Shown here: in pieces, positions 34,701 to 37,700 of the stretch
Position numbering within the stretch: position 1 is the first letter of the stretch
How the letters are laid out: each line of letters starts with the position of its first letter
IMG/VR virus record: IMGVR_UViG_2917408641_000002
Span: 1 to 44,997 of that record
Source of the DNA: a virus
Taxonomy: Duplodnaviria > Heunggongvirae > Uroviricota > Caudoviricetes
Strand: one strand, 5' to 3'
DNA length: 44,997 bases
Position numbers: made by a program

Positions 34701-37700
34701 CTTTGCTTAATCCGGCGATATCGTCTGTGGCAGCACGTGGTGAAATCAAAGTCACGTTTGACAATGCGCCACAGGGAATGCGCGTTATCGATTTGCCGAA
34801 AACAGGCGATCCCTTTATGAAAATCACCCATGACGTTGGGTATTCACCTTTCAGGCGTTAATAATGAGGTATCAGAATGGATTTTCCTTCCTTACCTTCT
34901 TTGCCCTCTTTGTTTTCTTCATCTTCCGGAACGACCTGGCGCGATAATCTTTACGACGCTTCATTTCGTGGCGTTCCGTTTTCGGTGGAGAGCGACGAGG
35001 GTTCGTTCGGACGCCGCGTTCAGGTCCATGAATACCCAAACCGTGACAAACCGTACACGGAAGATCTCGGGCGTGCCACGCGACGGCTGACGATTAATGC
35101 GTATCTCGTTGGTGATGATTACGCAGAGCAGCGCGACAGGCTGATTACCGCGATTGAAACCGCCGGGCCGGGGACACTGAACCATCCGCAGTTCGGTGAA
35201 ATGCAGGGTTGTATTGACGGACAGGTGACCGTTTCTCATTCCAGCACGGAAGGCCGTATGTGCCGGGTTTCATTTCAGTTTGTTGAGAGCGGGGAACTGT
35301 CATTTCCGGTCGCCGGAGCCGCAACCGCCAGAAAACTGGAGGAGTCGTCCGGATTCCTGGATGAGCTGCTTGAAGACATGTTCGGCGATTTTGATCTCGC
35401 GGGAATACCGGACTTTATTCAGAACGATGTTATTGCCCGGGCAACCGATATGCTGGGAACCGTTCAGACGGCTTTCAAAATGGTTAATTCTGCTGTTTCT
35501 GCCGGAATGAGGCTGATGCAGGGCGATTTATCCGTCATTCTGATGCCGCCATCGGTTGCCAGTGATTTTGTGCATACGTTGCAGGATACCTGGCGGGCCG
35601 GAACCAGACTGGTGGATAACACACAGGATCTGGTGCAGTCCATAACGACAATGTCCGGTATTACGCTGGATCCAGGACTGGCACCGCGTGCGGTGTGGCC
35701 CACAGATTCCGCATCGGTTGTCAGGCAAAAACAGCAGACAAATCTGGTGGCTGCAGTCATCCGGACGACGGCAATCAGCGAGGCTGCAAGGGCGGTCACT
35801 TCACTGCCGCAACCCGGAAGTCTGGTGAAAAATCAGCAGGCGGTTGTGGCTGTTGGTGGTTCCACTGAACGTCAGTCCGATATCATTCATGTTTCTCATC
35901 CGGCACTTGACAGTGTGGCTGCCAGTACAGAGCAGAATGAGACAGCACAACCACCCACGCGGGAAAATCTCACCATCATACGCGAATCGCTGAACGCGGC
36001 GATTGAGCAGGAGCTCAGGCGTACGGCGGATGACAGGCTGTTTTTTCAGTTGACGTCATTACGTACAGAACTGAACCGGGATATTCAGGCCAGTCTGGTT
36101 CAGACGGAGGAAACCGCAGAGCGAACGCCAGCGGAGGTTCTTCCTGCGCTTGTTCTGGCTGCGTCATGGTACGACGATGCGTCCCGTGAAACTGATATCC
36201 TGGATCGAAATGCCATCTCTCATCCGGGCTTTGTTCCGGTCAGGGCATTAAGGGTACCCGTCAGATGAATAATACCGTTTTACTTCGGGTTTCCGGTCGC
36301 GAATGGGGCGGCTGGACATCCGTCCGTATCAGTGCGGGCATTAACCGTATTGCCCGGGATTTTAATGTTGTCATTACCACCCGCTGGCCCGGAAGCCGGG
36401 ATTATCAGCCCCGGATAAAAATGGTGAGCTGGTTGAAGTGCTTATCGGGGATGAGCCTGTGCTCACCGGATATGTGGAGGCACTACCGCTTCGTTATGAC
36501 GCCAGCAGCGTCAGCATGGGAATTGTCGGGCGAAGCAAAACAGCCGATCTGGTTGACTGCTCTGCTTTGCCACTCCAGCAGAGCGGAAAAAACCTGCTCA
36601 GAATAGTCAGTGAACTGGCTGCGCCATTTGGCATCACCGTTGTTGATGCTGGCGTGCCACAGACAGCGGTGATTGATGCCCAGCCGGAACACGGCGAAAC
36701 CGTTGCCGATTGTCTTAACCGGTTGCTGGGGCAGGTTCAGACGCTGGCTTATGACGATGAATGCGGGCGACTGGTTCTGGGGAAACCCGGAACAGGCAAA
36801 GCGGCGACAGCACTGGTGCTGGGAGAGAATATTCTTTCCTGTGACACGGAAAGAAGCATCAGAGAGCGGTTTTCTGAATATCAGGTCAGTGGGCAGCGCC
36901 CGGGCAACGATGATGATTTTGGTGAGGCCACCATTGCCGCAATACGTCAGACCATTCAGGACAGTGGTGTGACCCGTTATCGCCCTTTGTTGATTCAGCA
37001 GTCAGGCACAGCAACGGCAGCAACCTGTAAGGCCCGTTGTGAATTTGAAGCGCGCCAACGGGCTGCGCTTACCCGTGAGACAACATATACGGTTCAGGGC
37101 TGGCGGCAGGGCAGTGGCGCGTTATGGCGTCCGGGGTTATCTGTCATCGTTTTCGACCCGCTGAATAATTTTGATAATGATGAACTGGTGATCGCAGAAG
37201 TTACCTATAACCATGACGACCGGGGCACGACGACCGAATTACGGGTTGGCCCGGCAGATGCTTATCTCCCTGAGCCTGTCACCGCCAGGAAGAAAAAAAA
37301 TGTTGAGGAGGATTTCTGATGAACGGGTTTTCTCTTCGCAATCTGATTTCCCGGGCTGTCATCACGGCGGTGGATTCCGCCAGAAAGTGTCAGTCTGTAG
37401 GGTTGAAAATGATAGCCGGAGATCAGAAACAACACGTTGAGCACCTTGAACCTTATGGTTTTACATCTGCCGCACAGAACGGTGCTGAGGGGGTTGCTTT
37501 ATTCCCGGCGGGCGACCGTTCTCATGGTGTGGTTGTGGTCGTGGCTGACAGACGTTACCGGCTGAAAGGACTGAAACGTGGGGAAGTGGCGCTTTATGAC
37601 GATCAGGGGCAGTCAGTTGTCCTGACCCGTTCCGGTATTGTGGTGAACGGGGCCGGTAAGCCCATTATTTTTAAAAACGCGTCTAAAGCGCGCTTTGAAA

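Follow-up and report, generated by a model that had tools for sequence, protein, structure and literature searches.

In the prophage studied here, the gene for the Mu gpP-like baseplate hub is divided between two reading frames at a run of five A residues, and this division is probably a genuine loss-of-function frameshift in a decaying prophage (we put the probability at about 0.9). The stretch of DNA that we analysed, hereafter the window, is 44,997 nucleotides long and is 100% identical to CP025979.1 at about 503.6–548.6 kb (L026, L029), a record that represents the chromosome of the Escherichia marmotae type strain HT073016 (PMC6650469). It is a phiP27-like, Mu-tailed prophage of this strain adjoining aspS, in agreement with the yecE–aspS insertion region of phiP27, and it is collinear with this Stx2e phage from the integrase to the tail fibres. 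The hub gene shares 97.7–98.5% nucleotide identity over its whole length with phiP27 gene L49 (NP_543101.1) and with E. coli prophage relatives; phiP27 and all of the E. coli relatives, however, have A6 and encode an intact 351-aa hub, whereas the prophage in the window has A5 and a split gene. The window prophage also differs from phiP27 in that stx2e is absent, with an IS66-family element in that place, in that it carries an ipaH-like effector gene, and in that its tape-measure and tail-fibre genes are broken. The alignment with phiP27 contains a further ~65 gaps, which are mostly compensating pairs in divergent stretches and were rejected as candidate lesions.

The A run occupies positions 36417–36421 and has a T on either side; the window reads CCCCGGAT AAAAA TGGTGAGC, or over a wider span CAGCCCCGGAT-AAAAA-TGGTGAGC. 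Both frames can be read directly from the nucleotides. The frame that opens at ATG 36265 encodes MNNTV...DYQPRIK (the protein begins MNNTVLLRVSGREWGGWTSV) and reaches codon 52 with the AAA at 36418–36420, after which it continues for 61 unrelated residues to a stop at 36606. The second frame, at 36420–37319, encodes NGELVEVLIGDEPV...KKNVEEDF. The initial annotation had described a hub gene split at this run into about 50 and ~290 codons; the split into two pieces is borne out, and the pieces are actually 52 and 299 codons long. Its proposal that one extra A would restore the gene also holds, given that an A inserted at the run yields a single 351-aa ORF that exactly matches the E. coli baseplate protein P0001 (EFB2836971.1), found on contigs of other assemblies. 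Because the two pieces jointly rebuild a known protein at 100% identity, chance is not at issue. The 113-aa product of the frameshifted reading, by comparison, had no record on exact protein look-up. The hub gene and its immediate neighbours are laid out as follows:

34877–36268, + strand: DNA-circularization gene (Mu gpN-like), intact; it shares its last 4 bases with the hub start, and phiP27 has the same overlap.
36265–36420, + strand: hub gene codons 1–52 (M1–K52) in the frame of the true start; the mechanical ORF runs on out of frame to the stop at 36604–36606, giving 113 aa.
36417–36421, + strand: A5 run, a probable 1-bp deletion from an ancestral A6, read directly.
36420–37319, + strand: hub codons 53–351 and stop, one base off the start frame; the 293-aa mechanical ORF that begins at GTG 36438 is contained in it.
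37319–39936, + strand: intact baseplate genes gp45/V (177 aa), gp46/W (137 aa), gp47/J (360 aa), and gp48 (196 aa).

The assignment to the Mu gpP-like hub family, likewise made in the initial annotation, rests on firm ground. The repaired protein contains four Pfam domains, all above their cut-offs (GpP-like_1st at residues 5–91, Gp44-like_2nd at 93–173, NMB1110_3rd at 202–258, and GpP_4th at 251–337), and it matches the solved structure of Mu gp44, the product of gene P, over residues 1–344 (1WRU/9KI1; E = 7.5e-47) as well as 3CDD (E = 1.6e-46); no NCBIfam model matched the hub protein. Mu gp44 has the same four Pfam domains, and in the gene maps the locus follows the gpN-like circularization gene and precedes the gp45, gp46, gp47, and gp48 baseplate genes, reproducing the Mu order of circularization protein, hub, gp45, gp46, gp47, and gp48. 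A working GpP hub has an uninterrupted frame; here, in contrast to Mu gp44, the frame is broken after codon 52 by a 1-bp deletion, and standard decoding would give no full-length hub. The frame changes midway through domain 1, leaving the upstream fragment with profile positions 2–41 of 85 of GpP-like_1st only, and the downstream fragment with Gp44-like_2nd, NMB1110_3rd, and GpP_4th intact and domain 1 wholly absent. Translation from ATG 36265 would leave the hub frame after Lys52 and end after the 61 unrelated residues, and a product started at GTG 36438 would be missing residues 1–58, approximately two thirds of the N-terminal domain. In gp44 the N-terminal barrels make up a ring that serves as the foundation of the tail tube, and for this reason neither fragment should work. 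Judged by its sequence, then, the locus is a pseudogene of the Mu gp44/GpP family and not a working member, and the function of the hub protein is presumably lost.

The initial annotation had asked whether homologues share the two-ORF arrangement; none of about 80 does, and every relative examined has A6 at the site. All 51 of the complete E. coli genome records with the hub gene span 92 bases across the site, compared to 91 in the query, and none is identical to the window. The six-base form was likewise found in 16 of 16 IMG/VR contigs and in 4 of 4 metagenome contigs, using a pattern that accepted either A5 or A6 (acceptance of A5 was shown on the window itself) and with the extra base seen to be an A in the regular-expression tables. 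Nine further contigs reached via the neighbouring gp45 gene (L030–L038) have A6, as do phiP27, three complete E. coli genomes, and two further contigs that were read directly. A scan of GTDB species-representative genomes for either hub allele returned no match. Given that all relatives examined carry A6, A5 is private to HT073016, and the hub lesion is an ordinary, recent, strain-private pseudogene. Three pig-ETEC records with 1055-base spans were considered as possible carriers of A5 and were ruled out, all three having A6 at the site. A separate change is present at the 3′ end of the hub gene in ETEC1732 (L002, NZ_CP122823.1, locus ~5030), where A7 replaces A8, the hub ORF is extended into gp45, and the gp45 call is shortened. 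The hub CDS is annotated at 4001–5176 in the same extended form in both this record and ETEC1746 (L003), the latter of which also has a “frameshifted” tail tube gene; these hub changes are either real lesions or long-read homopolymer errors.

The hub run is not the only damaged position in the tail module. The initial annotation had counted it as the second homopolymer lesion there, 2.8 kb from the first, and we find that first lesion in the tape-measure gene, at a G9 run 2835 bases upstream; the tail-fibre gene is broken as well, at a position that is not a homopolymer and was absent from the initial annotation:

32947–34861, + strand: tape-measure pseudogene; G9 at 33582–33590, one base more than G8, separates a 249-aa piece from a C-terminal one.
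39923–41131, + strand: tail-fibre pseudogene; codon 80 is TAA (40160–40162) for GAA (Glu80 to stop), followed by 322 homologous in-frame codons.

The C-terminal tape-measure piece is 445 aa long as a mechanical ORF and 380 aa in the call of the draft assembly, and an intact homologue has 637 aa (L007). CP025979.1 has no protein on record at either the tape-measure or the hub position. The G9 run is the longest G run in the window. Two close relatives, L007 and L008 (Logan SRR6001585), have an in-frame G8 at this place, and all other relatives read GGGGGTGG; a T to G substitution that converts GGGGGTGG to G8, and Val to Gly, is thus confined to the sublineage comprising L007, L008, and the window. 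On this distribution, the substitution appears to have created a slippage-prone tract, which later gained one G in HT073016. The tail-fibre TAA is common to L008 and the window, with GAA in L007 and in 20+ other relatives. Over 10.9 kb, L008 and the window are 99.95% identical; L008 nevertheless has A6 and G8, and it bears a 1-bp tape-measure deletion of its own at the position matching window 33927. The gap between the tape-measure and circularization genes contains another homopolymer indel of this lineage, a harmless one-base difference in an intergenic A run at window 34863, which reads TAATAATG in the window and L008 and TAATAAATG in L007.

Outside the tail module, the window contains two insertion sequences, also absent from the initial annotation, and an effector gene occupies the right end of the prophage:

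5064–6472, + strand: IS3-family insertion in the early region that is not in phiP27, with orfB at 5630–6355.
17313–19928, − strand: IS66-family element (tnpA, tnpB, tnpC) with the phage tRNA region on one side and the lysis genes on the other, in the place of stx2e in phiP27.
41731–44034, − strand: LRR + NEL (IpaH/SspH2-like) type III effector gene at the prophage right end.

The effector is 767 aa long as a mechanical ORF and 542 aa in the deposited call, and the different start used in that call is probably the reason why exact look-up of the 767-aa ORF returned no record. Its LRR region contains internal repeats that are ~85–89% identical at offsets that are multiples of 60 bases (60, 180, and 240, within 43082–43710). 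HT073016 has been described as having two chromosomal ipaH-like genes (PMC6650469), of which this is presumably one, and the effector is cargo, plausibly the part of the prophage that is still useful to the host. Two other loci may be recorded here. A TerB-like ORF follows the IS66-family element at 20146–20571. A 319-aa ORF at 14428–15387 joins a RusA resolvase domain (residues 8–98), truncated by ~15 profile positions at its end, to a complete antiterminator Q domain (95–310); the draft assembly and a further Logan sample contain it in identical form, and it may be either a genuine fusion or the scar of a recombination event.

The frameshift in the hub gene could be no more than an error of assembly, in which case HT073016 would truly have A6 and G8 and two homopolymers would have been miscalled in the consensus. 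Both frameshifts lie in homopolymers and both are private to this strain, residual consensus errors of PacBio RSII data are typically homopolymer indels, and indels in runs of the hub gene do occur in deposited records, such as the A7 at the A8 run of ETEC1732. Despite these points we consider such an error very improbable, in part because a separate draft of HT073016 is 100% identical to the window across the tail module. The CP025979 assembly was built from PacBio RSII reads only, with HGAP2, and HT073016 and six other strains had also been sequenced as Illumina HiSeq2000 drafts (PMC6650469). The 218-contig assembly GCF_000807695 comes from the same type strain, and its contig JNBP01000146.1 matches the window at 100% identity over 14.5 kb, including A5, G9, and the TAA codon, so that the allele is reproduced in a second assembly of the strain; the draft scaffold covering the early region differs from the window solely by an N gap. 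This earlier, short-contig draft and the PacBio-only HGAP assembly hence agree base for base over the tail module. The draft contigs end at the IS66 copy and within the tail-fibre repeat, as a short-read assembly would, and from the methods in PMC6650469 we infer that the JNBP01 draft derives from Illumina reads, the accession itself being silent on this. Its contig records are first versions, and they were therefore probably left unedited following the PacBio work. A Logan read-set assembly likewise lists the truncated 293-aa hub ORF. A miscall of A6 as A5 would moreover be odd when the longer homopolymers of the window, which are three A8 and one T8 and include the A8 at 37293 within the hub gene, are called in frame, and the co-occurring tail-fibre lesion is a substitution that is common to another assembly. 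The deletion of an A from the hub gene is thus most likely real, on the strength of these assemblies. Being private to one strain, A5 could have arisen in laboratory culture, and it would be a real mutation either way.

A real frame change need not mean a dead gene, as programmed recoding, by −1 ribosomal frameshifting or by transcriptional slippage on the A run, could in principle produce a single hub protein. Tail modules do contain programmed frameshifts elsewhere, those of the tail assembly chaperones being one case, and a tRNA-Lys that slips by −1 from the AAA at 36418–36420 to the AAA at 36417–36419 would yield exactly ...PRIK-NGELV...; a hairpin is also predicted just downstream of the run. 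The resemblance to the lambda G/GT-type chaperone frameshift, where there is likewise a frame change in the tail module that a −1 slip would bridge, goes little further, as the gene is a different one and the hub site is not conserved and is without a slippery heptamer or a significant stimulatory structure. The sequence at the run is A AAA ATG and not X XXY YYZ, so that only the P-site Lys tRNA can re-pair, and the A-site ATG cannot do so with AAT. The predicted fold does not stand out from those of shuffled sequences (z = −1.15, with 25 of 200 folding as well), the stem abuts the A run and does not lie 5–9 nt downstream of it, and in the A6 relatives the hairpin sequence simply forms part of an ordinary reading frame. 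An A5 run is, in addition, too short for efficient slippage by RNA polymerase. Given that the two-ORF arrangement is found in none of about 80 single-frame homologues, and with no slippery heptamer and no significant downstream structure, we reject programmed recoding and give it next to no credence. Somewhat less remote, and still very unlikely, is the prospect that A5/A6 in the hub gene and G8/G9 in the tape-measure gene are contingency tracts that toggle tail production within the population. The tract lengths differ between prophages that are 99.95% identical, and G8/G9 is long enough for frequent slippage; A5/A6 is short for a contingency tract, however, and G8 is a recent by-product of one T to G substitution in this sublineage only. 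The tail-fibre nonsense mutation is not reversible, so both tracts could flip back and tails would still not be restored, and there is no other sign of a regulated system.

A loss-of-function frameshift in a decaying prophage accords with the state of the element as a whole, whose inactivating lesions comprise three independent ones in genes that virion production requires (the tape-measure frameshift, the hub frameshift, and the tail-fibre nonsense mutation) together with the IS66 and IS3 insertions, and thereby mark it as a defective prophage. The distribution of alleles among its closest relatives allows these events to be placed in a most parsimonious order. The T to G substitution that formed the tape-measure G8 would have come first, in the common lineage of L007, L008, and the window, and a GAA to TAA change would then have inactivated the tail-fibre gene in the lineage of L008 and the window; by this order the tail-fibre nonsense is the oldest of the three tail lesions. 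The changes from G8 to G9 and from A6 to A5 would have followed in HT073016 only, with a different frameshift in the strain of L008. One A was most likely lost from the A6 run by replication slippage. We infer that this loss came late and was neutral, the tail module being useless by then and the prophage already unable to build tails, and that the lesions would have persisted under relaxed selection.

It is also conceivable that selection rather than drift drives repeated, independent knock-out of the tail module in E. marmotae, either locking in an effector-bearing element or avoiding the production of tails. The hypermutable G8 and A6 runs would then be the preferred routes to inactivation, and the shared fibre nonsense mutation followed by separate frameshifts in sister strains could be read in this way. 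We regard selection of this kind, with the two runs as its preferred routes, as very unlikely.

This prophage resembles defective, “grounded” prophages with virulence cargo, among which are the ipaH-bearing prophage remnants in Shigella and the cryptic prophages of E. coli K-12. It shares with them structural genes inactivated by point lesions and IS insertions, next to a cargo gene that is plausibly of benefit to the host and whose frame is open. It differs from them in being at an early point of its decay, with almost every gene still at full length and single-base lesions as the only difference from intact relatives, and in that the comparison with a sister assembly separates the steps of decay one by one.

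The finding amounts to an ordinary dead gene in a resident virus in which two other tail genes have been lost, and it has little weight beyond bookkeeping, as a resident prophage that no longer makes particles is expected to carry frameshifted structural genes. As the hub lesion is probably a real mutation and not a homopolymer miscall, it should not be “corrected” in the record. Neither infectious phage nor mobilisation of the ipaH-like effector is to be expected from the phiP27-like element of the E. marmotae type strain, and the comparison with a sister assembly provides an unusually clean, stepwise view of the early decay of a prophage.
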